Source: an uncultured Alphaproteobacteria bacterium (GTDB lineage: Bacteria > Pseudomonadota > Alphaproteobacteria > RF32 > CAG-239). From it: DNA of 64,000 nt. The stretch is taken from assembly GCA_944391465.1 (NCBI GenBank), contig CALXTS010000006.1:397-64396 (forward strand), read 5' to 3'. The translations under genes and the position numbers were made by a program. Below, piece after piece: positions 13,586 through 63,371 of the stretch (position 1 is the stretch's first letter; every line of letters starts with the position of its first letter). The notes below the pieces were generated by a model, which worked only from the letters and a program-made list of their open reading frames with translations, ran no database searches and was not told where the DNA came from.

Positions 13586-13590
13586 AATCT

Positions 13591-13930: not shown

Positions 13931-13948
13931 TCAAAATAAGCAATCAAA

Positions 13949-18490: not shown

Positions 18491-18505
18491 AAGGAGTAAA
18501 CCAAA

Positions 18506-32623: not shown

Positions 32624-32848
32624 AATTACTAACTCCAAATAAGTTTTTTTGGTAAACACAAATTAATATACAATTAAAATTTAATACGTCAACAATTAAT
32701 CTCCTGTTTTTATTAAATTTCTAAAATATTTTTTAATCCGGATTTAAAATACTTGCATTTAAAGCTATTAGAAATTATAGATAATTTTACAGTCCTGAAT
32801 AATCTGGCTGAGGTCTCAAATTATCGTGTTAATTTTAAGGAAGTATTT

Positions 32849-35041: not shown

Positions 35042-35060
35042 CATAAAAAAAGGAAAATAT

Positions 35061-37136: not shown

Positions 37137-37158
37137 TTTTTTAAGTAGGGGAAATTTT

Positions 37159-39306
37159 ATGGAAGAATGCTTAAAACAACTGGCTGAAAAATTAGGAGTA
37201 TCGACCCGTTTTTCAGATGCAGGAATGGTTCGCCGAGAATATGAGGTCGGAGATGATACCATAAAATTTTTTGCTAAAATGTTGGGTTATAATGCAGAAA
37301 ATGAGGAAAAGATAAAAGAGAGTCTCAAGCAATACGAAGAAGCACGATGGAAAAAAACATTAGATGATATCTATGTTGTTGAAAGTGATAAGATTGAATT
37401 TGATGCTATAATTCAGAGTTCGGATATTTCGGAATATATGGAACTTGAAATTAAAAATCAAAACAGTGATGACCATATTCCGGTTTCATATCAAATTGTG
37501 AATGGAAACGCAGAAAAAGAAATAGATGGAAAAACATATGTAAGGATGATTGTAAGAATTGAAACACCGCTTACATATGGATACTATGATTTAAATCTAA
37601 AACTAAAGAATAAGCACTATAAAAGTTGTTTGGCAGTTTCTCCCAAAGGATGCTACGAAAGTCCGTCATTAAATAAAAAAATATGGGGATTTGCCGTCCA
37701 ATTATATTCTGTTAAGAGTAAACACAATTGGGGTGTCGGAGATTTTACGGATTTGAGTTCATTGGTAAAAATCGCAGCCAAGTCAGGAGCCTCAATTATC
37801 GGATTAAATCCGCTGAATGTCTTAATGCATAATTTTCCGGAAGAAGCCAGTCCTTATAATTCAATAAGCCGCTTATTTTTAAATCCGATTTATATTGATG
37901 TAGAGGCAGTTCCGGAATTTTATGCGGAAGATATGAAAGAAGTTCAAAAAGAAGTTGAAGAGCTGAGAAATTCAGAACTTATTCAATACAGCAGGGTTTA
38001 TAATCTCAAAATAAAATACTTGGAACGTTGTTACAAAAGATTCAAAGAAAGCAAGAATAAAGAGCGCAAAACTGCCTATGCCAGATTTTGTAAAGAACAA
38101 GGTGAAGAGCTGGATAAATTGGCAATATTTCAGTCTGTCTATGATGAGCAAAGTAAAACCGTTTGGGGCGGATGGCGTGCATGGCCGGAAGAATATCGTA
38201 ATCCGAGCTCAAAGGTGCTAAAAGATTATGCCAAAGAACATAAAGATAAAATAGATTTCTTTAAGTATTTGCAGTTTGAAGCAGATTGCCAGTTTAATAC
38301 GGCACAAAATAATGTTTCAGATTTAGGAATGGGGATAGGTTTTTACAGAGATTTGGCTGTAGGTGTTGGACAAGACAGTGCCGAGTTTTGGGGAAATCAA
38401 GAACTTTTTCTTTCTGAGGCAGGAGCAGGAGCTCCGCCGGATGCATTTTTCCCCGAAGGCCAGCAATGGGGGTTAGGCGCTTTTAATCCGCGTAAATTAA
38501 AAGAGCAGAAATATCTGCCGTTCGTAAAAATTTTGCGTGCGAATATGAAAAATGCCGGGGCCCTAAGAATAGATCATGTTATGAGTCTAATGCGTTTATA
38601 TATTATTCCGTTTAACGGAATGTCCGGAACATATTTATACTACAATTTTAAGGATATGATAAACATCGTTGCCCTAGAAAGTCATTTAAACAAATGCACA
38701 ATAGTCGGCGAGGCAATAGGCAATGTACCGGAAGGATTTTTAGATACGCTTAAAGAAAGAAATATTCATCCTTTGAGTGTTTTGTGGTCTGAACGTTATG
38801 ATTCGGGTTGGGGAGATTTTGTATCTCCATCTGGTTATCCGCAGAGTGCATTTGTATCTGTCGGAACACATGATATGCCGCCGTTAAGGATGTGGTGGTT
38901 TGGATATGATATTGAACTAAGCTACTCATTAGGGTTAATAGAAACGGAAGCCGCTAAATCGGAGGCATACCATAAACGCGAATTAGACAGATGGAAGTTA
39001 CTGTTTGCGCTGGATAGCAATGGAGTTTGGCCGGAAGATAATAAGCGTAGAAGCAACTATATATACGGAGAAGGATATCCGGAAGGAATAGAGGAGGCAG
39101 TTCATCGGTTTGTATCAAGAACTCCGAGCTCTGTTTTTTTAGCACAGTTTGAAGATATCTTACACGTTGAAAAAAGGCAAAATTTACCGGGTACGGATAG
39201 AGACAAACATCCTAACTGGAGAAGAAAACTTCCCGTTAATATGGAAGATATGGAGAAAGATATAGCTTATGTAAGGAATATCGCTGCAATCCGAAAAGAA
39301 AGATAA
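37159..39306 (+). CDS. malQ: 4-alpha-glucanotransferase (amylomaltase, long form)
   Basis: GH77 pattern (WGVGDFTDL, GLNPL, LRIDHVMSL, GEAIGNVPEG, THDMPP). 715 aa. Confidence 0.9.
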   Translation: MEECLKQLAEKLGVSTRFSDAGMVRREYEVGDDTIKFFAKMLGYNAENEEKIKESLKQYEEARWKKTLDDIYVVESDKIEFDAIIQSSDISEYMELEIKNQNSDDHIPVSYQIVNGNAEKEIDGKTYVRMIVRIETPLTYGYYDLNLKLKNKHYKSCLAVSPKGCYESPSLNKKIWGFAVQLYSVKSKHNWGVGDFTDLSSLVKIAAKSGASIIGLNPLNVLMHNFPEEASPYNSISRLFLNPIYIDVEAVPEFYAEDMKEVQKEVEELRNSELIQYSRVYNLKIKYLERCYKRFKESKNKERKTAYARFCKEQGEELDKLAIFQSVYDEQSKTVWGGWRAWPEEYRNPSSKVLKDYAKEHKDKIDFFKYLQFEADCQFNTAQNNVSDLGMGIGFYRDLAVGVGQDSAEFWGNQELFLSEAGAGAPPDAFFPEGQQWGLGAFNPRKLKEQKYLPFVKILRANMKNAGALRIDHVMSLMRLYIIPFNGMSGTYLYYNFKDMINIVALESHLNKCTIVGEAIGNVPEGFLDTLKERNIHPLSVLWSERYDSGWGDFVSPSGYPQSAFVSVGTHDMPPLRMWWFGYDIELSYSLGLIETEAAKSEAYHKRELDRWKLLFALDSNGVWPEDNKRRSNYIYGEGYPEGIEEAVHRFVSRTPSSVFLAQFEDILHVEKRQNLPGTDRDKHPNWRRKLPVNMEDMEKDIAYVRNIAAIRKER

Positions 39307-40196: not shown

Positions 40197-40826
40197 ATGG
40201 CACGCAGAACAAAAGAAGAAGCAGAGCAAACGAAACAAGCAATTCTAGATTCGGCTCTTAACTTATTTTATGAAAAGGGTTTTTCCAGAACAACATTTGA
40301 TGAAATAGCACGCAGAATAAATCTGACTAAGGGAGCAGTCTATTGGCATTTCAGAAACAAAGCGGACTTATTGGCAGAAATTATAAGGCAGAATTTTAGT
40401 GCAAGGCATCAGAAGCAATTCTCAAAAGAGCGTAGTATACAGACGGTATCAGACTTAAGGAAGGCAATAATTGAGGATGCCGAAGATATAGAAAATGATA
40501 AGGAATACTGCAAATTTTTATTCTTTATCATGTTGCAAATGGAATGGTCAGAAGCTATTTTTCAAAGAGTATCGGTACAAGTGAGAGACATCCGTCGTTA
40601 TCCACTAAAATTATTTAAAGAAACGTTGACTTTATTACAAAATCGTGGAGAAATAAAGGCAGATGTGAATATCGAAGAACTCGCCGAATTAAACATGTAT
40701 ATGTGGCGAGGGATTCTCGGTGCCTATGTCAGTCGAGCAGAGCCGATGAATTTACCGAAAATGATGCTCTTAGGCTTCGATTTGATAATGGACGGATTAA
40801 CAGTGGAGAAAGATTCAAATGATTAG
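40197..40826 (+). CDS. TetR/AcrR family transcriptional repressor
   Basis: N-terminal HTH region (ILDSALNLFYEKGFSRTTFDEIARRINLTKGAVYWHFRNK). It lies immediately upstream of, and overlaps, the efflux adaptor gene. Confidence 0.9.
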   Translation: MARRTKEEAEQTKQAILDSALNLFYEKGFSRTTFDEIARRINLTKGAVYWHFRNKADLLAEIIRQNFSARHQKQFSKERSIQTVSDLRKAIIEDAEDIENDKEYCKFLFFIMLQMEWSEAIFQRVSVQVRDIRRYPLKLFKETLTLLQNRGEIKADVNIEELAELNMYMWRGILGAYVSRAEPMNLPKMMLLGFDLIMDGLTVEKDSND

Positions 40827-41982
40827 GAACCGCGTTATAATTAAAAACGTAGTAATTTTTGGTTTATGTGCGTATTTTGGATGGTTTTTAAAAGGACGAT
40901 TAACACCGAGTGGTGCTATGATGGGTGCCGGAGCCAGAGGAGAGCCGTATGTATTAATTCAAGAGCTTGAAACCAGAAATATAGCCCCGAAGAAGAGTTT
41001 TATAGGTCATGTGGAGGCAATAAAAAGCGTAAATTTGCAACCACAAGTAACAGGATATGTTGAAAAAGTTCTATTCCAAGAAGGTTCTCTGGTCCAGGAA
41101 GGAGATTTGCTTTTTGTCATAGAACAAAAAAGATATCTGGCAAATGTAGAACTCCGTCAAGCGGAATTGGACAGCGCTAAGGCTAATTTGGTAAGAGCAG
41201 AAAGAGATTTTCGACGCCAGTCATCATTAAGCAAACAAAATTATGCATCAAAGGCAACTTTGGATAATGCCGAAAGTGATTATTTACAGGCAAAAGCGGC
41301 AGTAGCCCAAGCCCAAGCAAATTTAGATTTGGCAAAAATAGATTTAGATTATACGGAAATTAAAGCGCCGATTACCGGATATATTGGTAAGGCTTTGGTA
41401 ACGGAAGGTAACTATGTCGGTTCCACCACCCAGAATTTGGCACGTATTGTCCAAATGGATCCGATTCGTGTAGCTTTTTCAATTACGGATAAAGATTTGT
41501 TAAATATGCGCGAGACATATAAAACACATAAGAAAAATGAAGATCCTAAACTAAAAACAGAATTAGTTCTTCCAAATGGTCGAGTTTTGGAAAATCATTT
41601 GCGTTCGCGTTTTTCAGACAATGAAATTAACACAGATACGGCAACTATCGCGGTTTATACGGAATACAGCAACCAAGAGAATTTGTTGACCCCAGGAAAC
41701 TATGTAAATATTCGCATAGGCAGTGGAGAGGATAAAATGGCCTTGTTGGTTCCGCAAGCAGCAATCGCTCAAGATTCTAACGGCTCATATGTTGTTACGG
41801 TGAATGATGAAAACATTGCAGAGCAAAAACGCGTTATTCTCGGTGACATCATCGGAACACAGCAAGTTGTTTTGGAAGGACTGAATCCGGAAGATAAAGT
41901 TATAATTCAGGGTTTACAAAAAGTTAGCAATGGTCAAAAGGTCAAAGCATCACTCGTAAAAGAAGAAAGTATTGAGGAGTAA
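40819..41982 (+). CDS. RND efflux periplasmic adaptor (second copy)
   Basis: Same architecture as 17342-18490 (AQAQANLDLAKIDLDYTEIKAPITG). Confidence 0.9.
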   Translation: MIRNRVIIKNVVIFGLCAYFGWFLKGRLTPSGAMMGAGARGEPYVLIQELETRNIAPKKSFIGHVEAIKSVNLQPQVTGYVEKVLFQEGSLVQEGDLLFVIEQKRYLANVELRQAELDSAKANLVRAERDFRRQSSLSKQNYASKATLDNAESDYLQAKAAVAQAQANLDLAKIDLDYTEIKAPITGYIGKALVTEGNYVGSTTQNLARIVQMDPIRVAFSITDKDLLNMRETYKTHKKNEDPKLKTELVLPNGRVLENHLRSRFSDNEINTDTATIAVYTEYSNQENLLTPGNYVNIRIGSGEDKMALLVPQAAIAQDSNGSYVVTVNDENIAEQKRVILGDIIGTQQVVLEGLNPEDKVIIQGLQKVSNGQKVKASLVKEESIEE

Positions 41983-41988
41983 AGACTG

Positions 41989-44900
41989 ATGTTTTCCCGT
42001 ATATTTATTGAACGCCCACGCTTTGCGATGGTAATTTCCATCGTATTGGTTCTTGCCGGCGTTATTTCAGTATTTTCATTGCCTATTTCATTGTATCCAG
42101 AAATTACGCCGCCGGAAGTTGTCGTTTCGGCGACTTATCCGGGAGCAAGCGCGGAAGTTGTGGCTAAAACCATTGGTATCCCGTTGGAAGAAGAAATTAA
42201 TGGTGTTGAAGACATGCTCTACATGAGTTCTTCTTCAGAAAACTCAAGCTATCAGCTGACGGTTACATTTAAGGTTGGCGTTGATAGGGATATGGCGCAG
42301 GTAAAAGTGCAAAACCGTATTCAGCAAGCACAATCAAAACTTCCGACGGAAGTTACGCGTCAGGGTTTAACGGTGAAGAGTCGTTCATCAAACACATTAG
42401 GTTTCATTACGATAGGCTCACCCAAAGGCACATATTCTCAGCTAGAATTGGCTGACTATGTTCAAAATAATATTAAAAACAGTTTGGGACGTGTGCCCGG
42501 TGTTGGTGAAGTAAATGTTTATTCGTCGAAGTTAAGTATGCGTGTCTGGTTAGATGCCGATAAAATCACGGCGTTAAACATTCCGCTTTCAAGTATTACA
42601 TCTGCAATAGAAAGCCAAAACTACCAGCCGTCATTGGGTAGTGTTGGTGCAATGCCCGGAGACGGAACGCAACAAATGGTTTATACATTGCAAACGCAAG
42701 GGCGTGTTAATGAGGTTGAAGACTTTGAAAACATCATTATCCGGACAGCGGAGCAAGGAGGTTTGTTATATTTGAAAGATGTTGCAAGAGTTGAAATTGG
42801 AGAAGAGCAATACAGAGCAACATCAAAATATAACAATACGCCAAACGTAGCAATAGCAATTAACCAATTAGCGGGAGCCAATGCACTGGAGGCAATGGCC
42901 GGCGTTAAAAAAGAAATGGCAAGGTTAGCTCAGAATTTCCCCGAGGATATGAATTATGTCATCGGTTACGATTCTACGGAATATATTACAGCCTCTATTG
43001 AAGAAGTCGTCTTTACGCTTATTTTGACTTTTGCATTGGTTATTTTGGTTTGCTATATCTTTTTACAAGATTGGCGTTCGACTTTAATTCCGACATTAAC
43101 GATTCCGGTATCAATTTTTGCGACTTTTGCCGTAATGTTGGCTTTAGGTTTCAGCTTAAATATGTTGACATTATTCGGTTTGGTGTTGGCAATCGGATTG
43201 GTGGTTGATGATGCTATTGTGGTTGTAGAACGTGTTTTGTATTTAATGGAAAATGAAAAGTTGTCTCCGAAAGAGGCAACCATAAAAGCAATGGAACAGG
43301 TTTCCAGTGCAGTTATTGCAACAACATTGGTGTTGCTGGCTATTTTCGTGCCGGTTGGTTTTTTGGGCGGTATTACCGGAAAAATATACCAACAATTTGC
43401 AATAGCAATTTCAACCTCGGTTGCATTTTCATCATTAAATGCATTAACACTTTCTCCGGCACTTTGTGCCACGATTTTGCGTCCGCTTAAACCCAAACAG
43501 TCAGGGCCTTTATTTTGGTTTAACAAAGTTGTTAATAAATCCAGAGACAGATATGCCGCTTTTGTAGGTTTGGTTGGGCATAAAATAAGTGTGATTTTAC
43601 TGGTCACGGTTCTATTGTTTGCGGGTGTCGGTGGCTTGTTAAACATCAGCCAAACATCATTTATCCCATCAGAAGACCAAGGCGTTATTTTTATGAACGT
43701 TCAGCTTCCTGAGGGGGCAAGCCGAGTTCGTACACAGCAATTTGTAGATAAGGTTTATCCTTTGATAAAAGAAGAGAAAGGTGTTGCTGATGTAATGAGT
43801 GTTGTTGGTGTCAGTATGATTGGCGGCAGCGGAGAAAACGTTGCTTTAACCTTCATAACGCTAGAACCATGGAACAAACGCACGGATGATAATTTGTATT
43901 CAACCAACATATTAAATCGGATACGAGCAAAAGTTTCTGGTTTGCCGGAAGCCGAGGTTCAGCTTTTTGAACCCCCTGCAATTATGGGGCTTGGTATGAG
44001 CGGAGGTATGGATTACAGACTTCAATCTCTAGATACGGATGATCCTCAAAAGATAGATGCTGCTTTGCAAAGTATTTTAGCTTTGATGAATCAGTCTCCG
44101 GAAGTAAGCTATGCGTATTCGACATATACGGCTAAAACTCCCAATATTTACTTAGATATAGACCGAAAGAAAGCCGAAGCAATGAAAGTTTCTATCGGCA
44201 GCATATTCAGTGTGTTACAAAATTATTTGGGGTCTAGCTATATCAACGATGTGAACTTCGGAACGCAGGTGAATAAAGTAATGATTCAGGCCGACTGGAA
44301 ATATCGAAAGGATATTGAAAGCATTAAGAATCTCTATGTTCAGAACAATGACGGAGAAATGGTTCCCTTAGGGGCAGTGGTAAATCTGCGTAAGGTTTTA
44401 GCTCCTCGTGTTGTAACACGCTATAACCAATATCCAAGTGCAGAGATTACTGCGGTTCAAAGTCCATCATCAAGTACCGGTCAGGCAATGGCTGCCGTAG
44501 AAAAACTTTCGCAAAAACTTCCGGCAGGGTTCAGTTATGATTGGTCAAGCATGAGCTATCAAGAGAAATCAAGTAGCGGACAGATTGGTTATTTGATTAT
44601 TTTGGCAATGACTTTTGCATATTTATTCTTGGTTGCACAATATGAGAGTTGGTCAACGCCATTACCGGTATTAACATCGGTGTCTGTTGCCATGTTGGGA
44701 GCGTTGCTTGGTCTGTTTATAACGGGGCTGCCGCTTAGTATATATGCTCAGCTTGGTTTGATTTTGCTAGTCGGATTAGCTGCAAAGAATGCTATTTTGA
44801 TTGTTGAATTCTCCAAAGAAGAAAGGGAGCGTGGTTCAACCATTATTAAAGCAGCAGTTACCGGAACACGAGAACGTTTTCGCGCCGTTTTGATGACAGC

Positions 44901-45090
44901 TTTCACGTTTATTCTCGGTGTGCTCCCGATGATTGTGGCGACCGGGGCCGGAGCGGCAAGCCGCGTGGCGATAGGAGTTCCAGTGTTTTATGGTATGATA
45001 GTAGGAACCTTTGCCGGTTTAGCAATAATTCCGTTACTGTATATCATGTTCCAAACGATTCGCGAGAAAGTTAACGGAACGGCGGAATAA
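41989..45090 (+). CDS. RND multidrug efflux permease (second copy)
   Basis: 1033 aa, collinear with 18506-21682 ([23 protein letters not shown]). Confidence 0.95.
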
Positions 45091-45099: not shown

Positions 45100-45140
45100 A
45101 ATCACCTCAACAAGAATTAAGTTGAGGTGATTTTATTTTT
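45100..45140 (+). terminator. Terminator after the second RND operon
   Basis: AATCACCTCAAC ... GTTGAGGTGATT (a 12-bp perfect stem) followed by TTATTTTT. Confidence 0.8.
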
Positions 45141-45264: not shown

Positions 45265-48200
45265 ATGTTAAGACTAAAAAAGTTTATCCTTTTTTTGAGT
45301 GTGCTTTTTATAGCAAAAATAGCGGTTGCTGCAATTGTGTCAATTAATGAGACACAGTTCAGCAGTCGGTCATTGTCTTCACCATTAAATTCCGATGATG
45401 GCGGTTACACTTCTACATATAGTGGAGTCGAGTGTGGTTATTATACTTCATATACAGCAGAAGATTGCCAATCAGTATTAGGCGTTTCAAGTGCATCGGA
45501 ATACACGGCAACAGAATGTGATGGTGGAAAATATACATGTACCTGTTCGTCAGTATATTCTAAAACATGTGACGGTAGTGATGAAATTCCGTCAGGCCCT
45601 TCTTGTAAGAGTACCGATTCTGAGGGAAACCCGATTCTGAAATATAAAGAATGCAAAGCATTGTCAACGCTCAATTGTGCAGATATTAAAGGAGAAGAGG
45701 TTACTAGTGAGAGTGACTGTAGAACATTGTTGGGGCGCTCATATATGGAGGGAAGTTACCTGTCATGTTCAGAGGACGATGCTACCAAACAGTTCTGCGC
45801 GTATCCCCATTGTTCAGTTTTAGAAAATCGCAGTGAAGACGCCACCAAAACATTTACAAATACAGCGCCAAGTCAAGCCGATGCCATTCAAAATGGAAAA
45901 TGTTACGATTCATCGGGAGATGTTTTAGATGTATGGTATTGTCCAACCTCTTATACAGAACTTCTGATGCCAACATGTACGGATGACCGTTCCCCGATAA
46001 TTTGTGATTTACAAACAACAACTTTATATAAGCCGGAGTGCCAATATCCGGATTGTACAAGTTCAAATATGACGGTTATGAATAACCGTACGGTTATTAC
46101 CACAAGTTTGACCCCAAAAAGCAGTTGTCCGAGTAGTGGTTTCCTTGCCGGCGTAAAAGGTAAGATGTGCTATATTGATAAAACAACAGATGATAAGGGA
46201 GAAAACACGGATAAAAATCTCTACAATACTTGCACATGTCCAGAAGAATATGCCTATACAGCAGAGAGTTGTAAACTGGAGGAAGGGGATATTGAAGGAG
46301 CTGAGGTCGTTCCTATTGTTTCAAGACAGGCGGTTCCATCATTCTATACATTCACATCATCAGGTTCAACTTACACGGTTAGCGGATTGCAATATTATGA
46401 TTACTGCTATTGGGATGCTCAAAATTCAGGTCCTGTAGGTGATGCATTCTGTAGCTCAAACTATACTTCAGGAACTTCTGCATATAATACATGTATGCAA
46501 CATAAAGGACTTTCTGCAGAATTCGATACAGCAAAGTTTAAATACAAAGGGTGTGCATCTCTGTGTCCGACAACAAAATATGCCGATTTGATGGAGGTTT
46601 CTGTTGCTGAGGGGACATCTATGAATGGGTGTGCCGCGCAAGATGCCGAAGTTGTCCGTTGTGCGGTTCCTGTTAGTACAATAAATACAGATCCTGGATA
46701 TGATTCGTATCTTCTGAACAACAAGATTGCAAACGTTAAAATAAATTCGATTTCTAATGATAATGGAGGGGTTTCTTATTCAGGAGCCTTTGGTTTGACA
46801 GATATTTCCACCAAGGATTTTTATTTTGAAAAGGCATATTGCCGTTGTCCGGACAGTTATAAAGTTACATGTCCGTCAGGAACAATTCCGGGAGGAAAAG
46901 AATGTATTACGGAAGATGGTGTTGTAAAATATCAATTATGCCTGCCTGTATGTGATGAAACAACTGAAGGTAAAAAGATTACCAGCAATCCGACTACAGA
47001 AAGCTGTGAAGGAATTTCACAAAAATACAACAATGAAGGTGGTGATAGCGATTTAGCATCAGGAAAATGGTTCTGTGCTAATGCTGCCAGCAGTTCAGGG
47101 ACAGGCTACAGTAAATCAACTTGTGCATCATCAATAGGGACAATCAAGATTTGTTGTCTAGAAAATGGTGATGGAACCACTAGTAAAACTTGTTATAGCA
47201 ATTTTGTTCCGGGAGGTAAAACGGGATCCTATCAATACTGTTTTCCGTATGGGGAAACGCCACCGCATCAGGCTTGTTTCAAGAATGAATATGAAACAGA
47301 AGAGGCTTATTGGCAGTGTAGTTGTGTAAATTATAGATCAGAAGAGGATTGTCAGGCTCAAGATGAAAAACTACATGGAGCCGGAAAAATCTGTACTTTA
47401 GAAGGTAAAACAACTCCAAAATATGAAACATGTTCGGCAGCATGTGCAAATGATGGATCTGAATACATTGCAGCAACGACAGAAGAATGTAAACTGTCAA
47501 ATGGTGTCCAAACACCATATGAGGCTTGTTATATTGCAGGATCAGAGACTGAACAATATAGGTGTTCATGTCCGGAAAGTGGCTATACCAGTATAAAAGA
47601 CCACTGTGAAAGTGAATATACAGATCCGGAAGAAATAAATACTTGTCAAAGTTATACGATAGGTTTGGGAATCCCTTGTGAATTTGAGGCATATAAAGAC
47701 AATACAACGCAAGCATATTTAATTAAATATGAAGGTTTCGCCACACGTTGTAGTTTTTATACCAAAACGGAAGGTGAAAGCATAACCATAGCCGATAGTC
47801 TGAATAAGTGTCAAATGGGGAATGAAATAGCCAATGATCCATGTTATATGGACGTTAACGATTTAAGATATGTTTGTCGTTGTCCAAAAGCATACATAAG
47901 TTTGGATGAATATTGCGCTGGCGTTGTAGCCTCAGGAGAACTGGATGATAACGGGCAAGCATACACACTTGAGACATGTAAATCGGTTTATGTGGGAGAA
48001 GGTGTTCCTTGTAGTTTTGATGTTGATAAAACAACAAAATTAAAGATTGATAAGTTCACTAAATTTTCCAAACGTTGCCCGACAGATCGTCCTGTTTTTG
48101 ATAATCCATCAGATTGCTCAATTAATGGAAGTACCCCACAATATACGGTATGTTATAATGAAAATAATCAGGGCGTAGCAAAATATGTATGTTCTTGTCC

Positions 48201-51200
48201 GTCAGACTTTGATAATCAGTGCTATACAGAAGACGGTGCCGTCGATATGACAAAGATTCGCGGCGGAACATCTTGTAATTTTGAATCATATGATCCGACC
48301 AAGACGAAATATTCTGAATGCTTACCACAATGTAATAACACATCATTAACGCCGGTTGTTACAAATGCTGAAGAATGTCCGATGGTAAACGGGCAACCGG
48401 CTAAAGTAACTACTCAATGCTTTAATAAATTCGGGGATGAGGCAAAATATTACGTATGTGGATGTCCGGATGGTTATCAGACTTTGGAAGAATATTGTGC
48501 AAGTTCGGAATCTGAAGGGCAAAAAGGTGTAACTTATGATGGTATATTCTATACAGAGGCAGAATGCTTGAAAAAGTTCACCGGAGTAGGTGTTGCTTGT
48601 ACATATGATAATTTGACCAGCAAAAAATACAATAATTTTGCCATCATCTGTCCGACGGATAGACCCCTGTTTTACAGTGCAGAAGAATGTGTATCCGAAG
48701 GAATCAACGGAACAGTTGAATCGACATGTTATGAAAAGGATAATTTATTACAGCAAAGAATTATTTGTAAGTGTCCGTCAGATTGGGTTGATATAAACGG
48801 AAAGGATGCCGGAGGAAATCAAGTTTGTACGGGAGATACCGAAGCCTCAGGTTTGCAATGTAGTTTTGATGGACTTGATGCAAATTCTATAAAATATGCT
48901 CAATGCTATACCAAATGCGATAAACTTCCGACGAATGGAAAAGGTATAACCTATATTGAAGAGGAAGAAGCCAGTGAGGCAGAGTGTAAACTTCTGCTAG
49001 GAGAAGGGGCAACATACGGCGTAAATGAAAAAGAACCGACTTGTAGTCGTAATCATAGCTTATTCTACCCATGCTATTGTGGAGCAGATTATGTGTCTCA
49101 ATGCTTGTTGAGTGATAATACACACCCTAAAGATGATGCTCTGGCATGTACAATAGGAGATGTAACCTATTACAAAGAAACAGATTGCCAAAACAACGAC
49201 TGCGTAGAAGAAAGTTCAACCGTTGCAATTGAAGCTGAGCCGGAAGGATATACAGGTACAGCGGAGGCTTATTGTCAAGAACATTATGGAGACGGCTCAA
49301 CCGGTATTTTCTGTAATGTTGATGGAAAAGCAAGCATCCAGTGTACATGTGATGCCAGAACATATACGGAAACTTGCGATTATCCTTACACTGTTCCTGT
49401 AAAAAAACCGGCAGCCGGTGGTAAGTCTTGGTGTAAGTATGGTGAAGGTTCAACTCTAATGAAAGATGGTCAAGACCACTTTAAGTTAGGGGAATGTAAA
49501 GTAAAAGATTTATTGGCCAAATGCGGTGAACATATTTTGAATAGTGACGGTACGGAAAATACGTCTTATACAATTAAAGTAACATCAACGGAAAATGAAT
49601 GTACAACAAAATATGGTACCGGAGCAAAAACACAATTATGTGAATACAGCTCAGATAACAATAAACGCGGTTATAACTGCTATTATAATTTGAGTGATTT
49701 TCCGGTAACGGAGGCATCATGTCCGGTTCGCCACGTTTTGAGTAAAGAATATATTATTGAAAACGGCGTATATCATTATAAATCTTGTGATTGCCACCAA
49801 GCCTATAAATATCATAAATACAACTGCGCCGGAATGCTAAGCGGCGGAGCATGTTCTCAAGTCGTTTCCAAAGATTTGGAAGTTTATGATGAAACATTGG
49901 AAGGTCAAATTGGCAATGAATTAACATTTTATCCATATTGCCAGTGCACACCGGACTATAATCAAGAATGTGACGGTGAGCGTAATGTCGGTGTTGGAAA
50001 ACCCTGTAACGGAAAATATTTAGCCTGTGAGTGTAAACCGGATGAATTACCTGAAAACTGGGCGGATAACTATTATGGATGTCCGGGAGGCAAGAAGCCT
50101 ACGGGAGTGATAAAACCAAACGGATGTGGCGGAAAATATTATCAATGTTCGGTAACCGAATGCACATGGCAACACACGGAAACTTGTCCGGAGCCGTTAA
50201 TAGGGGTTGATGCTTGCCAAGATAATTTAGGAAACATCGGTGGATATAAAAGTTGTCAGGTTCCATCTGAGTGGAAAATCTGTGCTGAAGATACAATAGG
50301 TAAGGGTGAGCCATTAATCTATAAAGGTAAGTACTATTACAAAGAATGTGTTGATCAAGGAACGTGCGTCCATGGAGAAACGCAAACTTGCCAAGCAGAG
50401 TATCTTGTTGGTGTAAATGCATGCACAAGAAATAATGTCACATATTTTGAATACTGTGTCTGTGCTAAAGGTTTTGATAAAATTTGTACTGACGGACAAG
50501 TCGGAGTAGGTACATCATGCAAATTAAATGGTGTTGAGTACTATGCAGCATGTGAAACACCGGCAACGGAATGTACCTCAGATCATAAATTGGCTTGTGA
50601 TACCAATCAGGAAAAATATGAACCATGCGTGAAGGATAATACAACGCTAATGTATAAGTGTCGTTGTCCGCAAAACTGGGAAAGCTGTTCTGAAACCGGT
50701 GCTGCATCGGGTGCTGAAAAATGTACGGATGTAAATGGTACGGTTTACAGCCAATGTGAAGTTACGGAAACCTGTAGCGCAAATCAAAGTCTGACATATT
50801 CCGTATGTACAAGTTCTCAAAAAGGAATGGGCGGAAGTTGTATTGAAGATGGGGTGATTAAATATGCCGTTTGCGAAGAAACATCATCCTGCCGATTAAA
50901 CGGATATCAATATGCATGTTTAGGTTTTGAAACCTCAGCGTTAGGAGACGATTATTGTATTGATGAAAACGGTAATAAACTTTACAAAGAATGTAAGTGC
51001 CCGAGCAATTATGTTGAATGTCCTAATAAAACCAATACCAAGGGGACATCATGTACTCCGCTGAATCAGAACGGAACTTCAGGAACGACAGTTTATGCAT
51101 CTTGTACCTGCAATGATACGATTTATAAATATGATTGTCAGGCAGCTGAAAGCGGAAGTGGCGGCAATGAAGGAATTATTCCGGCCGGAAAGAAATCTTG

Positions 51201-52869
51201 TACACCGGTTACCTATGACAGTGCAACAGGAGAAGCTGTTGAAGGGACAACGCTTTATGAGTCTTGTGATTGTGCTGAAGGATACCAATACACATGTACC
51301 GGAAACGGACATTTTGTAGAGACAGGACAGGGTTATTGCCAAAAATACAGCAATGCAGCGAAATTATACAAATATTGTAATTGTGAAGAACAGTATCAGT
51401 ATTTGTGTACGGCAGATGAAAGCGGAAGAGGAATAGGTTTAACAGCACCACAAGATGAGAGTAAAAAGTGTACGCCGTTAGGTGGTGATAGTACAACAAA
51501 ATATTCAGAATGTCAGTGTGGCAATGAATATAACTTGACATGTGAAGGAAATGCTCAACAGCCGGGAAATGGCTATTGTTTAGGTGAAGATGGAGTAACC
51601 TATTACAATACTTGTACTTGTGATACGACTATATTCCAGTTTGATTGCAAAGCATCAGGTGCAAACAAAGGGGTCACGGTTCCGTCAACAACCAGTGATA
51701 AACGTTGCTTAGAACAAAAGTATGTTAATGGGTTGTTGACATCTACACAAAGATATATGGGCTGTAGCTGTAAGTCTGATTATAAATATCAATGTTATGA
51801 TGATTCCGAAAAAATTCCTGGTAGTAGCGAGAATTACACAAGCAGCAAATATGAAAGCAATGACAGTGATTATTGCGAAACGGCAGAAATGACTTCTCAG
51901 GAAGTATCAGGAGAAGATGGTTCAACCAGCACAGAATGGGTAATTGGAGAAACAACGAGAAAATATCAAAAATGTGAATGTCTGGGAAACTATATCACAC
52001 AGTCGGAATGCCAAGCAAAAGCCAATCAGTATGATTGGACAACAACTGAAGATCAAATGACAGATTATTGTTTAGAGGTCAGTAACAGTGGAACCATAAC
52101 CAAAAAGTACAATGAATCTTATTGCGGTTGTGTTCCAAATAAAACTCAAGATGAGTATGAAGATGACGGATATTGGTTATCATCAGTTAATGATCCGACA
52201 GCAAGCAGTGCAACCCGCACAATATTTGAACAAGAGGTTAAAGCAAAGTGTAATGATGAAAGAAACTTTGAATATGTTAAAGATGGATGCGGAAAAGTTT
52301 GGGCTAAATGCTTAAAAAAAGATTGGTATACTAATGAAAGCTGTGCAACCCGTTCAACAAAGGAGGCTCCGGATAGCGTAGTAAAATGGGTTGGAACCGG
52401 AAGTTCCGAAAGTTTAAAAAATACATTTGGAACATACGTCACTTTATATGAATCATGCGGATGCCCATCCAGTAATACGGTTGTAGATTGCGATAAATAC
52501 AGTGTTGTAACACAGGACACAAATCTATTCTGCACCAATTCTCCGTGGTATGGAAGTTACTATAATGGAAAGAATAAAAAAGAAGGATGTGCAGTACAAA
52601 GTGATAAAGGAACTCAACTAATAGTCAAATTAGATGAGAATACTATGTGTATCACTCCGGATGGAGAAAAAAAGTATCAGAGATGTAAGTGCAAAGAGAT
52701 ATATGATATGTCAGTTTATCCGGGATGTATGACTAAATTCCAAGGAGACCCGAGTAAAGCAGCCGATGATGCGGCATGTTGGGAATATGGAAGACGTGTT
52801 ATTACATATAATGGAGGCGGTGCTCAAAATGATTGTAGTTGTGTCTATCCATATAAAACAAGCTGTTAA
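45265..52869 (+). CDS. Giant secreted cysteine-rich C-x-C repeat protein (2534 aa), family unknown
   Basis: One uninterrupted 7.6-kb ORF. Signal peptide MLRLKKFILFLSVLFIAKIAVAA. Dozens of Y-x-x-C-x-C-x(2-3)-[YFW]-x(1-5)-C modules. No TM segment, enzymatic motif or known secretion/anchor domain that I recognise. Confidence 0.85.
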   Translation: MLRLKKFILFLSVLFIAKIAVAAIVSINETQFSSRSLSSPLNSDDGGYTSTYSGVECGYYTSYTAEDCQSVLGVSSASEYTATECDGGKYTCTCSSVYSKTCDGSDEIPSGPSCKSTDSEGNPILKYKECKALSTLNCADIKGEEVTSESDCRTLLGRSYMEGSYLSCSEDDATKQFCAYPHCSVLENRSEDATKTFTNTAPSQADAIQNGKCYDSSGDVLDVWYCPTSYTELLMPTCTDDRSPIICDLQTTTLYKPECQYPDCTSSNMTVMNNRTVITTSLTPKSSCPSSGFLAGVKGKMCYIDKTTDDKGENTDKNLYNTCTCPEEYAYTAESCKLEEGDIEGAEVVPIVSRQAVPSFYTFTSSGSTYTVSGLQYYDYCYWDAQNSGPVGDAFCSSNYTSGTSAYNTCMQHKGLSAEFDTAKFKYKGCASLCPTTKYADLMEVSVAEGTSMNGCAAQDAEVVRCAVPVSTINTDPGYDSYLLNNKIANVKINSISNDNGGVSYSGAFGLTDISTKDFYFEKAYCRCPDSYKVTCPSGTIPGGKECITEDGVVKYQLCLPVCDETTEGKKITSNPTTESCEGISQKYNNEGGDSDLASGKWFCANAASSSGTGYSKSTCASSIGTIKICCLENGDGTTSKTCYSNFVPGGKTGSYQYCFPYGETPPHQACFKNEYETEEAYWQCSCVNYRSEEDCQAQDEKLHGAGKICTLEGKTTPKYETCSAACANDGSEYIAATTEECKLSNGVQTPYEACYIAGSETEQYRCSCPESGYTSIKDHCESEYTDPEEINTCQSYTIGLGIPCEFEAYKDNTTQAYLIKYEGFATRCSFYTKTEGESITIADSLNKCQMGNEIANDPCYMDVNDLRYVCRCPKAYISLDEYCAGVVASGELDDNGQAYTLETCKSVYVGEGVPCSFDVDKTTKLKIDKFTKFSKRCPTDRPVFDNPSDCSINGSTPQYTVCYNENNQGVAKYVCSCPSDFDNQCYTEDGAVDMTKIRGGTSCNFESYDPTKTKYSECLPQCNNTSLTPVVTNAEECPMVNGQPAKVTTQCFNKFGDEAKYYVCGCPDGYQTLEEYCASSESEGQKGVTYDGIFYTEAECLKKFTGVGVACTYDNLTSKKYNNFAIICPTDRPLFYSAEECVSEGINGTVESTCYEKDNLLQQRIICKCPSDWVDINGKDAGGNQVCTGDTEASGLQCSFDGLDANSIKYAQCYTKCDKLPTNGKGITYIEEEEASEAECKLLLGEGATYGVNEKEPTCSRNHSLFYPCYCGADYVSQCLLSDNTHPKDDALACTIGDVTYYKETDCQNNDCVEESSTVAIEAEPEGYTGTAEAYCQEHYGDGSTGIFCNVDGKASIQCTCDARTYTETCDYPYTVPVKKPAAGGKSWCKYGEGSTLMKDGQDHFKLGECKVKDLLAKCGEHILNSDGTENTSYTIKVTSTENECTTKYGTGAKTQLCEYSSDNNKRGYNCYYNLSDFPVTEASCPVRHVLSKEYIIENGVYHYKSCDCHQAYKYHKYNCAGMLSGGACSQVVSKDLEVYDETLEGQIGNELTFYPYCQCTPDYNQECDGERNVGVGKPCNGKYLACECKPDELPENWADNYYGCPGGKKPTGVIKPNGCGGKYYQCSVTECTWQHTETCPEPLIGVDACQDNLGNIGGYKSCQVPSEWKICAEDTIGKGEPLIYKGKYYYKECVDQGTCVHGETQTCQAEYLVGVNACTRNNVTYFEYCVCAKGFDKICTDGQVGVGTSCKLNGVEYYAACETPATECTSDHKLACDTNQEKYEPCVKDNTTLMYKCRCPQNWESCSETGAASGAEKCTDVNGTVYSQCEVTETCSANQSLTYSVCTSSQKGMGGSCIEDGVIKYAVCEETSSCRLNGYQYACLGFETSALGDDYCIDENGNKLYKECKCPSNYVECPNKTNTKGTSCTPLNQNGTSGTTVYASCTCNDTIYKYDCQAAESGSGGNEGIIPAGKKSCTPVTYDSATGEAVEGTTLYESCDCAEGYQYTCTGNGHFVETGQGYCQKYSNAAKLYKYCNCEEQYQYLCTADESGRGIGLTAPQDESKKCTPLGGDSTTKYSECQCGNEYNLTCEGNAQQPGNGYCLGEDGVTYYNTCTCDTTIFQFDCKASGANKGVTVPSTTSDKRCLEQKYVNGLLTSTQRYMGCSCKSDYKYQCYDDSEKIPGSSENYTSSKYESNDSDYCETAEMTSQEVSGEDGSTSTEWVIGETTRKYQKCECLGNYITQSECQAKANQYDWTTTEDQMTDYCLEVSNSGTITKKYNESYCGCVPNKTQDEYEDDGYWLSSVNDPTASSATRTIFEQEVKAKCNDERNFEYVKDGCGKVWAKCLKKDWYTNESCATRSTKEAPDSVVKWVGTGSSESLKNTFGTYVTLYESCGCPSSNTVVDCDKYSVVTQDTNLFCTNSPWYGSYYNGKNKKEGCAVQSDKGTQLIVKLDENTMCITPDGEKKYQRCKCKEIYDMSVYPGCMTKFQGDPSKAADDAACWEYGRRVITYNGGGAQNDCSCVYPYKTSC
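47557..49080 (+). repeat. Five diverged tandem ~90-105 aa repeats inside the giant ORF
   Basis: Repeat units start at 47557 (YRCSCPESGY), 47869 (YVCRCPKAY), 48184 (YVCSCPSDF), 48451 (YVCGCPDGY) and 48763 (IICKCPSDW). The series closes at 49066 (YPCYCGADY). Each unit carries an internal G-x-G-x-x-C-x-[FY]-[DE] element. Confidence 0.8.
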
Positions 52870-52922
52870 GAATAATAGAAAATTATAGCATTTTACATAA
52901 CAGCAAAGCATTAAAAAATCCC

Positions 52923-52960
52923 CCTCAGATTTAACTGAGGGGGATTAGATTTTAAGAAGA
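52923..52960. terminator. Bidirectional terminator between the giant ORF and convergent flgL
   Basis: AATCCCCCTCAG ... CTGAGGGGGATT (a 12-bp perfect stem). Confidence 0.8.
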
Positions 52961-52964: not shown

Positions 52965-54926
52965 TTATTTCAAATAATTGAGTAAAGATACACTCATCAT
53001 AGACTGCATAACAGAGTATGAGGCTTGCAAAGTATTCAGAGCTTCAAGAGCTTTAACCGTCGCTTCAGTTTTATCAACGGTTTTCATACTGTCAACGCTG
53101 GTTTGCATGTTATTTTGAACAAGAGTTAAAGCCTCATCGTTATTATTCAAAACAACAGAGTTGTTACTGAGTTTTGTAATAATGGTGTATAAATTCGAAT
53201 TAAGTTCTCCGTTTGTATTTCCATTGTTATAAACGGCATCATTTATAAGTGTTGAAACCTCTTCTAAAAGATCATAAGTCTTTTCACTATCAATCAATCC
53301 ATCAACTTCTTCGGCCGGATTTCTGGTATCAACAATGTTTCCTTGAGCCATTTGCCCAAGAGCTCTGAAAAGTTTTTCAAAAGCGCTGTTGTTACCTGTA
53401 ACGTCTAAAGTAATCGTTCTGTCAGAAGAGATTCTTCTTTCCGAAGTAAAATTCCCACCGCTGTAATAAGATTGAGTACTAAGGCTCCAACGACTGGAGG
53501 CTTCTACTTCCGTTTGGGTTTCGGGAATACGATTAGCCGTGACAGTCAAAGTTCTACCATCATCACTAATTCCGGTAACCTGAACCGTCGTTGGTAAGTT
53601 TTTATCTGTAAAACCGGATAAATCAACAACAGATCCGATGGAAAAAGAAGAACTGAATTTAACAGGATCATCTCCTGCGGCAAAATCAACCGTAGCAGTG
53701 TCCGTAACCATTTTATCGGAAAGTTGATTATCTTCAAAAACAATAGTCTTTCCGTCTTCAGAAACCGATTTAACCGTATAAACACCATCTAAACCATTAT
53801 TAGTTCCTTCCATAACTAAGGTGTCGCCGGCTTTATAAGCAAAGAATGCCCCGTATTCACTGGCACGAACAGAATTCTTGTCTTTGTTAAAAGTCAAGTT
53901 TCCGGTTGTTTCGCTGTTTGCGGTTAAAGTATCTTTAAAAAATCCACCCGCATTTTCCGCGCTGATAGTCATGGTATTATCACCGGTAGGTGTAAATGTC
54001 AGCTTTCCGGTATCTTCAGCATCAACAAAACGATTAGCTAAGTTAGCATTTGGTGTAGAGGGATAAGAAATATTAATCCCGTCATAATAAGCCTGAAATT
54101 CTTCCAAAGAAGAGAACGGAAAGCTAACCGGGGCTTCGGTATTATTACCGCCGCCAAAGACATATTTCCCGTTGACCTGGGTATTAAGAGCATCAGCTAA
54201 CAATTGCATAGTTGTAAAAGCAAATTGTTGCAATTGTTTTAACTCTTGGAATTGCTCAGAGTTCATTTCATGCGGTTCACCTGTTTCCACACCATTTGCA
54301 TTTAAAACAGAAGATGTCCCGTTGATGGTGTAAAGAGGCATTTGTAAAGCCCCGTCCTCATTAAAAATAATATCAGGATTTTTAGCATGAACTTTATCAT
54401 AAAGCGCCTGCATTACGGCATCAGCATATCCTTCATCACCGGGATTTAAAGGATTTCCCTCAGCATCTGTAAGGTTAGAGATATCAATATTATCTCCGTT
54501 GTTATTATCCGTAAAAGTATATTGAACTCCGTCAATTGTAATTGTCTCATTACTATAAACGTCATTATTATCGGTAAATTTAATTTCACCGCCGGTGTAG
54601 TCAGGAGTAATTTTTTTCAAATCCATCCCACTAAAAGAATTCATCATACTTTTGAGATCATTAACGGCATCGGTAACCGTTTCCATAGCCGTATTCATGG
54701 CATCCATCTCAATTTTAAGATTTTTATTATTCTCCAAATAAGATTCTGTCATGGAGATGGAAGACTCTAAACTGACGATAGTACCGGCTTGAGAACCATA
54801 TCCGGCATAGGTAGGAGCTTTAAGCCCTGTAGTTGCCTGATAAGAATACAAATTTAACTGACTCTTCGTTGAAAGAGACTGGTTCAATAAATTCATATAA
54901 GTTGCATATGTAGGAACTCTAGTCAT
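52965..54926 (-). CDS. flgL: Flagellar hook-associated protein 3 (FlgL), long form
   Basis: Flagellin-like N-terminus (RVPTYATYMNLLNQSLSTKSQL) and C-terminus (LQASYSVMQSMMSVSLLNYL). It is the last gene after flgK. 653 aa with a large central insert. Confidence 0.75.
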   Translation of the reverse strand: MTRVPTYATYMNLLNQSLSTKSQLNLYSYQATTGLKAPTYAGYGSQAGTIVSLESSISMTESYLENNKNLKIEMDAMNTAMETVTDAVNDLKSMMNSFSGMDLKKITPDYTGGEIKFTDNNDVYSNETITIDGVQYTFTDNNNGDNIDISNLTDAEGNPLNPGDEGYADAVMQALYDKVHAKNPDIIFNEDGALQMPLYTINGTSSVLNANGVETGEPHEMNSEQFQELKQLQQFAFTTMQLLADALNTQVNGKYVFGGGNNTEAPVSFPFSSLEEFQAYYDGINISYPSTPNANLANRFVDAEDTGKLTFTPTGDNTMTISAENAGGFFKDTLTANSETTGNLTFNKDKNSVRASEYGAFFAYKAGDTLVMEGTNNGLDGVYTVKSVSEDGKTIVFEDNQLSDKMVTDTATVDFAAGDDPVKFSSSFSIGSVVDLSGFTDKNLPTTVQVTGISDDGRTLTVTANRIPETQTEVEASSRWSLSTQSYYSGGNFTSERRISSDRTITLDVTGNNSAFEKLFRALGQMAQGNIVDTRNPAEEVDGLIDSEKTYDLLEEVSTLINDAVYNNGNTNGELNSNLYTIITKLSNNSVVLNNNDEALTLVQNNMQTSVDSMKTVDKTEATVKALEALNTLQASYSVMQSMMSVSLLNYLK

Positions 54927-62524: not shown

Positions 62525-62647
62525 AAACAAGAAAGAAAAAACAAAATAGTTAAAAAATACTTAACAAAACTCTTGCCTTTTAAAATAATTTTGCTATATT
62601 TGAAAAAAAATAGAAAAAATTGTCAAAATCAAAAGATGGAAAGCAAG

Positions 62648-63124
62648 ATGAAAAAACTATTGATTTTATCCGCAATGTTGCTGATTTCAGGCTGTGCCTG
62701 TTTAGATGGATTATGCGGAGATGAAGAATATGTTAAACCGGTAACCAGATATCGTGTTTCAACCAATACAAAGAATTGCGACTATTTTGATGGAAAAACA
62801 TGTTTCCGTTATGTTCGCCGCGAATATGAGGCACCTGTAGAATATGTTCGTTATCGTGAACCACGCCGTATTTACAGAGATGTTGCATATGTAGATCCAT
62901 GTGAGAACAAGATAGGCGGAGCATATTGCCCCAGACAAGCGGTTGAAAATCCGTGTGAAGTCAAAACAGATTCCTGCCAAGAGACAGTAAGACAGGTTAG
63001 GGAGCCTGTAGAAATAGTATATAAGAAAACCACATATCGCACAGTCTATGAGCCCAAGACATATGAGGATGTTACATATGAAAAAGAGCCGTATAGAAAA
63101 CCAAGCTGTGTAACATGTGAATAG
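62648..63124 (+). CDS. Lipoprotein with Tyr/Arg/Glu/Pro-periodic repeats and 10 cysteines
   Basis: Lipobox LISGCA. Repeated motifs such as EYVRYREPRRIYRDVAY and YKKTTYRTVYEPKTYEDVTYEKEPYRKP. Start chosen at 62648; 62636 is also possible. Confidence 0.6.
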   Translation: MKKLLILSAMLLISGCACLDGLCGDEEYVKPVTRYRVSTNTKNCDYFDGKTCFRYVRREYEAPVEYVRYREPRRIYRDVAYVDPCENKIGGAYCPRQAVENPCEVKTDSCQETVRQVREPVEIVYKKTTYRTVYEPKTYEDVTYEKEPYRKPSCVTCE

Positions 63125-63247: not shown

Positions 63248-63371
63248 AAAGGGTAACATGCAACGGAACAAAGTCTAAAACCGCATATTACACCAGACTT
63301 TCAGGAATTTTCGGCGCCACCGAAAGTCTTTCTGTTGCATGTTACCTTTATTTATTATTGAGGAGGCGGCC
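63248..63371 (+). promoter_or_regulatory. Structured 5' leader of Cys-rich gene B (terminator-like long hairpin with alternative inner pairings)
   Basis: A 13-bp perfect stem GGTAACATGCAAC (63252-63264) / GTTGCATGTTACC (63334-63346), followed by TTTATTTATTATT and then the RBS. Inside, AGACTTTC (63295-63302) can pair with either AAAGTCT (63270-63276) or GAAAGTCT (63322-63329). Confidence 0.5.

Follow-up and report, generated by a model that had tools for sequence, protein, structure and literature searches.

The window analysed here, a stretch of 64,000 nucleotides from contig CALXTS010000006.1 of an uncultured Alphaproteobacteria bacterium, contains at positions 45265-52869 of the plus strand one intact open reading frame (ORF) of 7,605 nt, with an ATG start and 2,534 codons followed by a stop. 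Its product is a giant cysteine-rich protein whose mature chain has a computed mass of 274.6 kDa and a computed pI of 4.5. The giant protein contains 204 cysteines (8.05%) and 28 C-x-C sites, and its composition is acidic and rich in Thr, Ser, Gly and Tyr (Tyr 7.4%). It begins with a putative Sec-type signal peptide (aa 1-23, MLRLKKFILFLSVLFIAKIAVAA; 45265-45333, plus strand), with the layout typical of a Sec signal, namely a basic n-region, a hydrophobic h-region and an A-x-A c-region; an equivalent N-terminus is present in 23 of 23 orthologs. The signal region is free of cysteine and therefore holds no lipobox. The mature chain has no transmembrane segment, judged by the absence of any hydrophobic run of at least 12 residues, and cysteine modules reach the last residues (...CSCVYPYKTSC), where no barrel, transmembrane segment or known sorting signal was found, be it a sortase motif or a signal of the type I (T1SS) or type IX (T9SS) secretion system. 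An original prediction, made from the letters of the window alone, had announced an uninterrupted 7.6-kb ORF with a Sec signal peptide and without transmembrane segment, lipobox or barrel- or RTX-type end; the ORF call, the n/h/c layout, and the hydrophobicity and Pfam scans agree with it on each of these points.

When GTDB species were scanned with a single genome each, orthologs of the giant gene turned up in 23 species known from metagenome-assembled genomes (MAGs); their samples are from human and animal gut, and their labels read uncultured Alphaproteobacteria, Azospirillaceae or Proteobacteria. The orthologs measure 2,000-2,700 aa, with about 8% cysteine, 20-30 C-x-C sites and a signal peptide in each. 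This clade may be RF32, a gut order of low GC content. Among 20 non-redundant orthologs, cysteine columns are 84% conserved versus 20-47% for other residue types, and cysteine conservation is about 100% across aa 900-2100. Saturation of synonymous sites is seen in the comparison with a 75%-identical ortholog (L029), so the proportions of synonymous (pS) and non-synonymous (pN) differences are given instead of a dN/dS ratio: pS is 0.82 and pN 0.15 overall, with pN at 0.046 in aa 1372-1760 and 0.23-0.27 in the termini. In this pair, 203 of the 204 cysteines are retained, 92 of them with the codon switched between TGT and TGC. These patterns indicate that the giant gene is real and under purifying selection, which appears strong on the cysteines.

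The identical 7,605-nt sequence recurs in three or more further contigs, which belong to distinct ENA and Logan assemblies. No DNA-level tandem or long direct repeat was found in the giant gene, so that collapse of repeats during assembly is of no concern. An artefact of assembly or annotation, or a frame in decay, is effectively refuted as an explanation of the ORF by the identical sequence in independent assemblies, the lack of DNA repeats, the intact orthologs in 23 species and the strong purifying selection; an assembly artefact had been listed in the original prediction as a way to refute it.

The giant protein can be divided into several regions, all encoded on the plus strand. Indeed, it includes (i) a tag at the mature N-terminus, A-[AGS]-[IV]-x-x-I-x-x-T-x-[FY] (aa 22-33, AAIVSINETQFS; 45328-45363), (ii) a variable N-terminal cysteine-rich region of irregular modules (aa 24-696; 45334-47352), with a non-cysteine conservation of 11-28%, a cysteine conservation of 60-71% and a pN of 0.23 against the 75%-identical ortholog, (iii) seven 8-Cys modules of about 85-110 aa each (aa 697-1371; 47353-49377), delimited by fragment BLASTP and motif cutting, which form a super-repeat of about 195 aa, each end with Y-x-x-C-x-C-P-x-x-[YFW]-x(n)-C and have a cysteine conservation of 67-100% per 100-aa block (100% across aa 901-1300), (iv) the most conserved core (aa 1372-1760; 49378-50544), with a non-cysteine conservation of 49-67% across aa 1401-1800, the low pN given above and many invariant non-cysteine residues (R, H, K, D, N, W, Y, G, P), (v) a segment of mixed 8-Cys and 12-Cys modules, including two-Cys 'GVG-x-x-C...YY-x-x-C' units (aa 1761-1919; 50545-51021), (vi) a tandem array of six four-Cys modules, each 35-53 aa long (aa 1920-2177; 51022-51795), for which a confident structure model was obtained, and (vii) a variable C-terminal cysteine-rich region (aa 2178-2534; 51796-52866), with a non-cysteine conservation of 11-17% and a pN of 0.27. 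The C-termini proper differ among all orthologs and are not conserved. Judged by these substitution and conservation values, a conserved centre is thus flanked by fast-evolving ends, and the core is a candidate functional or binding region.

The N-terminal tag, searched as a strict regular expression, is common to giant orthologs (14 of 21) and to more distant proteins that share the core (7 of 20), i.e. 21 of 41 in all, with no occurrence in shuffled N-termini; such a conserved tag may be a sorting or anchoring signal.

Cysteine modules along the chain

The C-x-C pattern taken alone is only modestly enriched in the giant protein (28 observed against 16.5 +/- 3.7 in shuffled sequences, about 3 sd). 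In contrast, its extended form is far above chance: [YFW]xxCxC occurs 18 times for 1.6 expected from shuffles, and [YFW]xxCxCx(2-4)[YFW]x(1-6)C occurs 15 times for 0.18, with a maximum of 3 in 2,000 shuffles. Two other cysteine patterns are strongly avoided, namely CC (1 observed, 16.5 expected from shuffles) and CxxC (0 observed, 16.6 expected).

Internal repeats run along the whole chain, with E-values down to 1e-17 when fragments are compared with the whole protein by BLASTP. When the chain is cut after each motif, nearly all of the resulting units have an even number of cysteines, mostly 4 or 8. The unit underlying these repeats is a module of 35-53 aa with four cysteines, which can be written (G-x-G-x-x)-C1-x(7-22)-Y-x-x-C2-x-C3-(P)-x-x-[YFW]-x(2-6)-C4 and in which Tyr is conserved beside Cys. 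With a hidden Markov model (HMM) built from 23 modules, 32 envelopes are reported in the giant protein, of which 20 have i-E < 1e-3. As the protein repeats have no counterpart in DNA repeats, the modules are old duplications.

In aa 1761-1919, the two-Cys hairpin also stands alone, without the C-x-C half of the module, and this suggests C1-C2 and C3-C4 as the disulfide pairs; C1 would then most likely pair with C2 over the hairpin, and C3 with C4 over the turn that comes after it. Furthermore, the six-module stretch aa 1920-2177 has exactly 24 cysteines in 15 of 17 orthologs. A few local pairs (C2169-C2177, C2360-C2398 and C2105-C2119) surfaced in the co-loss of cysteine columns among 42 orthologs, a signal confounded by phylogeny and by misalignment of the variable N-terminal part. 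The even cysteine counts and the conservation of cysteines through codon switches lend indirect support to a disulfide-bonded extracytoplasmic protein.

The recurrence of Y-x-x-C-x-C and the conserved spacing of cysteines between diverged residues, both put forward in the original prediction, are borne out by the count of the extended motif and by the column conservation in 20 orthologs. The chain of small disulfide-bonded domains proposed there is supported by cysteine conservation, codon switches, the retention of 24 cysteines and the predicted hairpins described below.

Structure model and comparison with known modules

The six-module stretch (aa 1920-2177) was modelled with AlphaFold2 (AF2) from a 17-ortholog alignment, with a mean predicted local distance difference test score (pLDDT) of 87.8 (84.5-87.8 over five models) and a predicted template modelling score (pTM) of 0.64. 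The model consists of short beta-hairpins, which include the Y-x-x-C-x-C strands, and its pTM suggests that the modules have a defined arrangement relative to one another and are not loose beads. The output comprised pLDDT and secondary structure. Another run on aa 1372-2177 (806 aa) with a 7-sequence alignment gave a nearly all-beta model of low confidence (pLDDT 56.6, pTM 0.26).

Foldseek, a method that is weak on small disulfide-rich domains, found no significant match for the confident model in the PDB (best E = 0.59, no TM score above 0.22; a fragment of integrin I-EGF at rank 9, E = 1.2) or in a viral library (best E = 0.098). For the low-confidence model, the top matches were cysteine-rich domains of the tumour necrosis factor receptor (TNFR) type and NELL2 epidermal growth factor (EGF) repeats, all non-significant (E >= 0.4).

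These matches bear on the hypothesis that the giant protein is a host-mimicking array of EGF-like or TNFR-like domains, derived from eukaryotes, acquired horizontally and engaging host receptors. The predicted modules of the giant protein do resemble EGF modules, since both are small disulfide-stabilised beta-hairpin units in tandem and the C-terminal half of the four-Cys module (Y-x-C-x-C-x2-x-[YFW]-x(n)-C) is reminiscent of the C4-x-C5...C6 part of EGF; they also resemble TNFR domains in forming, as predicted, an elongated ladder of small disulfide-bonded modules. However, the modules of the giant protein carry 4 cysteines (8 in the 100-aa units), whereas an EGF domain needs six per about 40 aa, paired 1-3, 2-4 and 5-6. 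The original prediction stated that a few modules fit the PROSITE EGF_2 pattern; only 1 of 28 modules does, and EGF_1 fits 0 of 28. EGF-type models gave no Pfam match and no significant fold match. The TNFR likeness is confined to the low-confidence model (Foldseek E >= 0.4, TM <= 0.2), is not among the top matches of the confident one and has no counterpart in sequence. The single EGF_2 fit, the TNFR-superfamily and NELL2 hits of the low-confidence model and the rank-9 integrin I-EGF hit are thus weighed against structural matches that all have E >= 0.4 and TM <= 0.22, the lack of any EGF, TNFR or other Pfam match even for fragments at E <= 10, modules with 4 rather than 6 cysteines, a GC content that matches the surrounding chromosome, and a search of 1.84 billion proteins that returned 51 relatives, the four with a source name being from Alphaproteobacteria MAGs. 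Eukaryotic mimicry is highly improbable on this evidence.

Other large or cysteine-rich proteins were also compared. Like the variant surface proteins (VSPs) of Giardia and the i-antigens of ciliates, to which the original prediction had likened it, the giant protein is large, cysteine-rich and repetitive, with conserved cysteine spacing and variable sequence in between. Giardia VSPs are, however, defined by many CXXC motifs, a C-terminal transmembrane segment and a CRGKA tail, none of which is present in the giant protein. Its lack of CxxC (0 against 16.6 expected) removes the defining feature on which the VSP analogy would stand. Furthermore, the giant gene is single-copy and syntenic, with no sign of a switching gene family. 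A metallothionein-like or thiol-buffer class, with clustered CC, CxC and CxxC motifs, few aromatic residues and little regular secondary structure, does not fit either, as CC occurs once and CxxC never, Tyr is conserved and the confident model is made of beta-hairpins.

The giant adhesins of the RTX/T1SS, autotransporter and TpsA types share with the giant protein the size class, a repetitive stalk-like build, an acidic composition and variable repeats around conserved parts. RTX/T1SS adhesins and those of the type V secretion system (T5SS) are essentially free of cysteine because they cross the envelope unfolded, whereas the giant protein combines a Sec signal with 8% cysteine. No Pfam match was obtained in it to the T5SS barrel translocator or to the domain of two-partner secretion (TPS), nor to RTX. 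An RTX/T1SS adhesin would have an uncleaved C-terminal secretion signal, GGxGxD repeats, no Sec signal and adjacent genes for an ABC exporter, a membrane-fusion protein (MFP) and an outer-membrane factor; the signal of the giant protein is N-terminal, and the MFP encoded upstream belongs to an AcrB-type pump of the resistance-nodulation-division (RND) family, not to an ABC exporter.

Relatives and the putative surface fibre

No match to the whole giant protein was found in Pfam or NCBIfam at E <= 1, and five fragments gave no Pfam match at E <= 10, so neither a catalytic nor any other domain was detected. Sequence searches of the PDB with the giant protein and two profiles returned nothing at E <= 10. 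The lack of a recognised family, as stated in the original prediction, thus holds for Pfam, NCBIfam, PDB sequences and Foldseek alike. Literature searches on the organism group, on RF32 with the term cysteine-rich and on DUF1566 with the same term retrieved no description of the giant protein.

When 1.84 billion representative proteins were searched exhaustively by HMMER with a profile of aa 1372-2177, no more than 51 relatives came out at E <= 1e-3, of which about 20 are full-length orthologs and several are fragments; the four that have a source name are all entered as 'hypothetical protein [Alphaproteobacteria bacterium]' from MAGs. A second group of relatives (P0053-P0056, 1,200-2,000 aa) shares the conserved core (profile positions about 2-390). 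The weak tail of the 51 consists of secreted proteins with tandem 'GVG-x-x-C-x-GKY-x-x-C-x-C-P-x-x-Y-x-x-x-C' modules. Several relatives, including P0054, P0072 and P0079, also carry Lcl_C/DUF1566 (PF07603) domains, and in these proteins the four-Cys modules adjoin Lcl_C, often directly upstream of it, in the position of a stalk.

A generalised module HMM finds the module in 47 of the collected sequences (the 51 relatives and earlier matches). It also reaches into a family of small cysteine-rich proteins with more than 300 members, many of which end in Lcl_C or in an InvE_AD 'adhesion domain': 75 of 120 proteins of this family are matched at E < 1e-3, compared with 0 of 120 shuffled controls, which makes the four-Cys module a real domain family, though an uncurated one. 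The giant protein is a member of this 'GxG-C...YxxCxC' family as defined in the present analysis, and is classified as a giant repetitive extracytoplasmic protein with a previously undescribed domain family. The module has no counterpart in Pfam, NCBIfam or the PDB and yet is confidently modelled, which makes it a new domain family worth curating, and it ties more than 300 small proteins, many of them Lcl_C-bearing, into one adhesin-like superfamily.

Two smaller secreted proteins with 9-11% cysteine are encoded in the window at 25931-27064 (plus strand) and 63369-64000 (plus strand, cut by the window end). They are related to each other (E = 6e-10) and have a conserved 'I-x-x-LPRY-[TQ]-G' directly after the signal peptide. 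The first of them had been taken for a paralog of the giant protein in the original prediction; it is barely similar to it (BLASTP E = 0.016, no match to the module HMM) and is related only transitively, through the family of more than 300 small proteins. No second copy of the giant protein was found among the ORFs of the window with the full-length ortholog HMM and the module HMM. With the two smaller proteins and the giant one, the genome carries several members of the cysteine-rich adhesin-like superfamily. In another member of the small family, P0116, aa 218-265 form a genuine Ephrin_rec_like (PF07699) cysteine-rich domain (E = 1.8e-14), so that bacterial stalk proteins can take in a cysteine-rich domain type best known from eukaryotes.

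By analogy, the closest functional counterpart of the giant protein would be Lcl of Legionella, an adhesin that is secreted by a type II secretion system (T2SS), displayed at the surface and composed of an N-terminal anchor, a stalk and a DUF1566 head (PMC11162425). Relatives of the giant protein put the four-Cys module directly upstream of, or beside, Lcl_C, and the giant family has a conserved tag at the mature N-terminus where Lcl has an N-terminal anchor. The two differ in that the giant protein lacks an Lcl_C domain and shows no sign of trimerisation or glycosaminoglycan binding, and in that its predicted stalk is made of disulfide-rich beta-hairpin modules whereas that of Lcl is a collagen triple helix; the C-terminal domain of Lcl is itself devoid of disulfides (PMC11162425). 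The motif W[YHF]LP[SAT] is absent from the 75%-identical ortholog and from the other full-length orthologs. From these comparisons, the giant protein seems to come closest, in the way it works, to the stalk of a modular surface adhesin.

The explanation favoured here, with an even chance of being correct, is that the giant protein is a lineage-specific, Sec-exported, periplasmically oxidised, rod-like surface or extracellular fibre of the adhesin type, with a conserved core and fast-evolving ends. According to this explanation, Sec would export the protein to the periplasm by means of the cleavable signal peptide, and oxidation of the 204 cysteines there would yield roughly 100 intramodule disulfides, which would hold some 50 small beta-hairpin units together as a long, acidic and protease-resistant rod. 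With about 50 four-Cys equivalents, this rod would exceed 100 nm if the modules are EGF-sized. It would then be displayed on the cell surface, or released from it, as an adhesin-type fibre. In this fibre, the core (aa 1372-1760) would do the work or bind the ligand, the N- and C-terminal arrays, which evolve fast, would serve as spacers or as an exposed, diversifying surface, and the tag at the mature N-terminus might hold the fibre on the cell. The T2SS is a known route for folded, disulfide-bonded proteins and would be the obvious candidate for the passage of such a substrate across the outer membrane. Variable ends around a conserved core fit an exposed fibre with a conserved functional centre, and the link to adhesins comes from the secreted relatives in which the four-Cys module is joined to Lcl_C/DUF1566 domains.

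Several observations weigh against this explanation. Neither Lcl_C nor another recognisable binding domain was detected in the giant protein by Pfam, as a whole or in fragments, and the conserved core was modelled at low confidence only, in the AF2 run on aa 1372-2177. No signal for outer-membrane translocation, partner secretion gene or anchor is identifiable, no Dsb, T2SS or other secretion-system genes are present in the 64-kb window, and a Sec substrate stays in the periplasm by default. In addition, the conserved adjacency to an RND pump operon, described below, is not explained by an adhesin.

In another hypothesis, the giant protein would stay in the cell envelope as a periplasmic or tethered structural or scaffolding component that never crosses the outer membrane. 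In favour of such retention, the only export signal present is the Sec signal: neither a lipobox nor a sortase motif is there, nor a TPS domain, an autotransporter barrel or a signal of the T1SS or T9SS type. Conservation is also lacking at the C-terminus, and none of the adjacent genes is a secretion gene. However, a chain of 275 kDa and about 50 modules far exceeds known periplasmic proteins, its termini evolve fast, as exposed surfaces do, and in relatives the four-Cys module precedes adhesin-type heads of the Lcl_C kind, Lcl itself being surface-displayed. Retention in the envelope is therefore regarded as rather unlikely.

A bolder version of the surface-fibre explanation, which is possible but tentative, is that the four-Cys module represents a disulfide-ladder fold that is new, specific to bacteria and independent in origin of the eukaryotic EGF and TNFR modules. 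A clade of human and animal gut Alphaproteobacteria would build from about 50 copies of it a rigid surface fibre of more than 100 nm, with the invariant core recognising a host or microbial ligand.

If this bolder version is true, the giant protein would represent a class of Gram-negative adhesin whose folding and oxidation take place in the periplasm, ahead of its passage through the outer membrane, unlike the known giant adhesins, which are cysteine-free and cross unfolded. About 100 disulfides in a Gram-negative gut organism would raise questions on oxidative folding and on the passage of a large folded substrate through the outer membrane. As the largest conserved exported protein of its clade, the giant protein is an obvious candidate for gut attachment or self-protection, and if the fibre is exposed, its conserved core could serve as a lineage-specific antigen or marker. 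The related sequences all come from metagenomes or MAGs, and the gut Alphaproteobacteria concerned are uncultured.

Genomic neighbourhood

Directly upstream of the giant gene lies an operon encoding a TetR regulator, an MFP and an AcrB-type RND pump (40197-45090, plus strand), identified by Pfam and by synteny in loci L004-L026. Of the neighbours of the giant gene, this operon alone is conserved. It contains no gene for an outer-membrane factor; a second RND operon of the window (17342-23135) has its own (OEP, 21675-23135). The stop codon of the acrB-like gene is followed by a terminator-like hairpin read directly from the sequence (45100-45140, plus strand; 12-bp stem with arms at 45100-45111 and 45121-45132, 9-nt loop, T-run), which separates the RND operon from the giant gene. 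On the other side, a second hairpin with a 12-bp stem (52917-52946) lies between the giant gene and a convergent flgL-like gene on the minus strand and is shared by the two; it has a strong T-run on the minus strand, but only a weak one on the plus strand. The flgL-like, flgK, flgN and flgI genes make up this convergent downstream group. Across 23 loci, the gene order MalQ - TetR - MFP - AcrB - giant gene is kept nearly everywhere, with AcrB 75-90% identical, and the giant gene is single-copy, syntenic and vertically inherited. The flagellar genes are found beside it in the closer relatives only, being inverted in L008 and absent in L014-L026.

The original prediction described the giant gene as a stand-alone unit, insulated by 12-bp-stem terminators on both sides and set between an efflux and a flagellar operon. 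Both hairpins were located and the insulation stands, as do the two flanks within the window. However, the gene does not stand alone in position, as its place behind TetR-MFP-AcrB is conserved in nearly all of the 23 species, and its flagellar neighbour is not conserved across species. An association of the giant gene with flagella was accordingly rejected: in more remote species flgL, flgK and flgN are either missing or in a different arrangement, and one strain has an integrase at this place, so that the flagellar adjacency is incidental, whereas the RND adjacency is conserved.

The RND adjacency raises another hypothesis, in which the giant protein would be a thiol-rich buffer for metals, electrophiles or redox stress that works with the upstream pump, its cysteines acting as ligands or sacrificial thiols. 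The conserved TetR-MFP-AcrB-giant gene order, next to a flank that varies, would fit such a partnership, as would the 8% cysteine with many C-x-C sites and the lack of an outer-membrane factor in the RND operon. On the other hand, metallothionein-type and redox motifs are avoided, with no CxxC and one CC, both far under chance, and the conserved aromatic, Gly and Pro scaffold and the confident beta-hairpin model point to structural cysteines. Moreover, a terminator hairpin stands between the pump operon and the giant gene, the pump is of the AcrB type with a TetR regulator, and P0054, which shares the core, has no RND pump nearby. A thiol buffer is thus improbable.

Further observations were made on the genes around the giant gene. 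In L029, a phage-type integrase (PF00589 and DUF6538) and a small ORF are inserted at 13581-15564, at the exact 3' junction of the giant gene and before flgL, and the convergent terminator region is thus an insertion hotspot. In the window, the gene at the flgL position (52965-54926, minus strand) encodes an unusually long protein of 653 aa without Pfam match; its NCBIfam matches to flagellin and FlgL are partial and sub-threshold, so that it is a divergent hook-associated protein 3. Upstream, a glycogen/maltodextrin cluster (32753-39306, plus strand), which encodes a GlgB-like enzyme, a GlgX-like debranching enzyme and MalQ, is conserved ahead of the TetR-RND-giant block, and MalQ is found in most loci of the clade. 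A small ORF at about 62636-63124 (plus strand), located between an alpha-amylase-family gene and the truncated cysteine-rich gene, encodes a product with a lipoprotein-type signal (MKKLLILSAMLLISGC...) and about 6% cysteine, rich in Tyr, Arg, Glu and Val and without family match. Finally, an M23 peptidase gene and a bactofilin gene form a pair (6457-9557, plus strand) immediately ahead of a flgE-like hook gene; gene pairs of this kind are frequently tied to cell shape or polar organisation.

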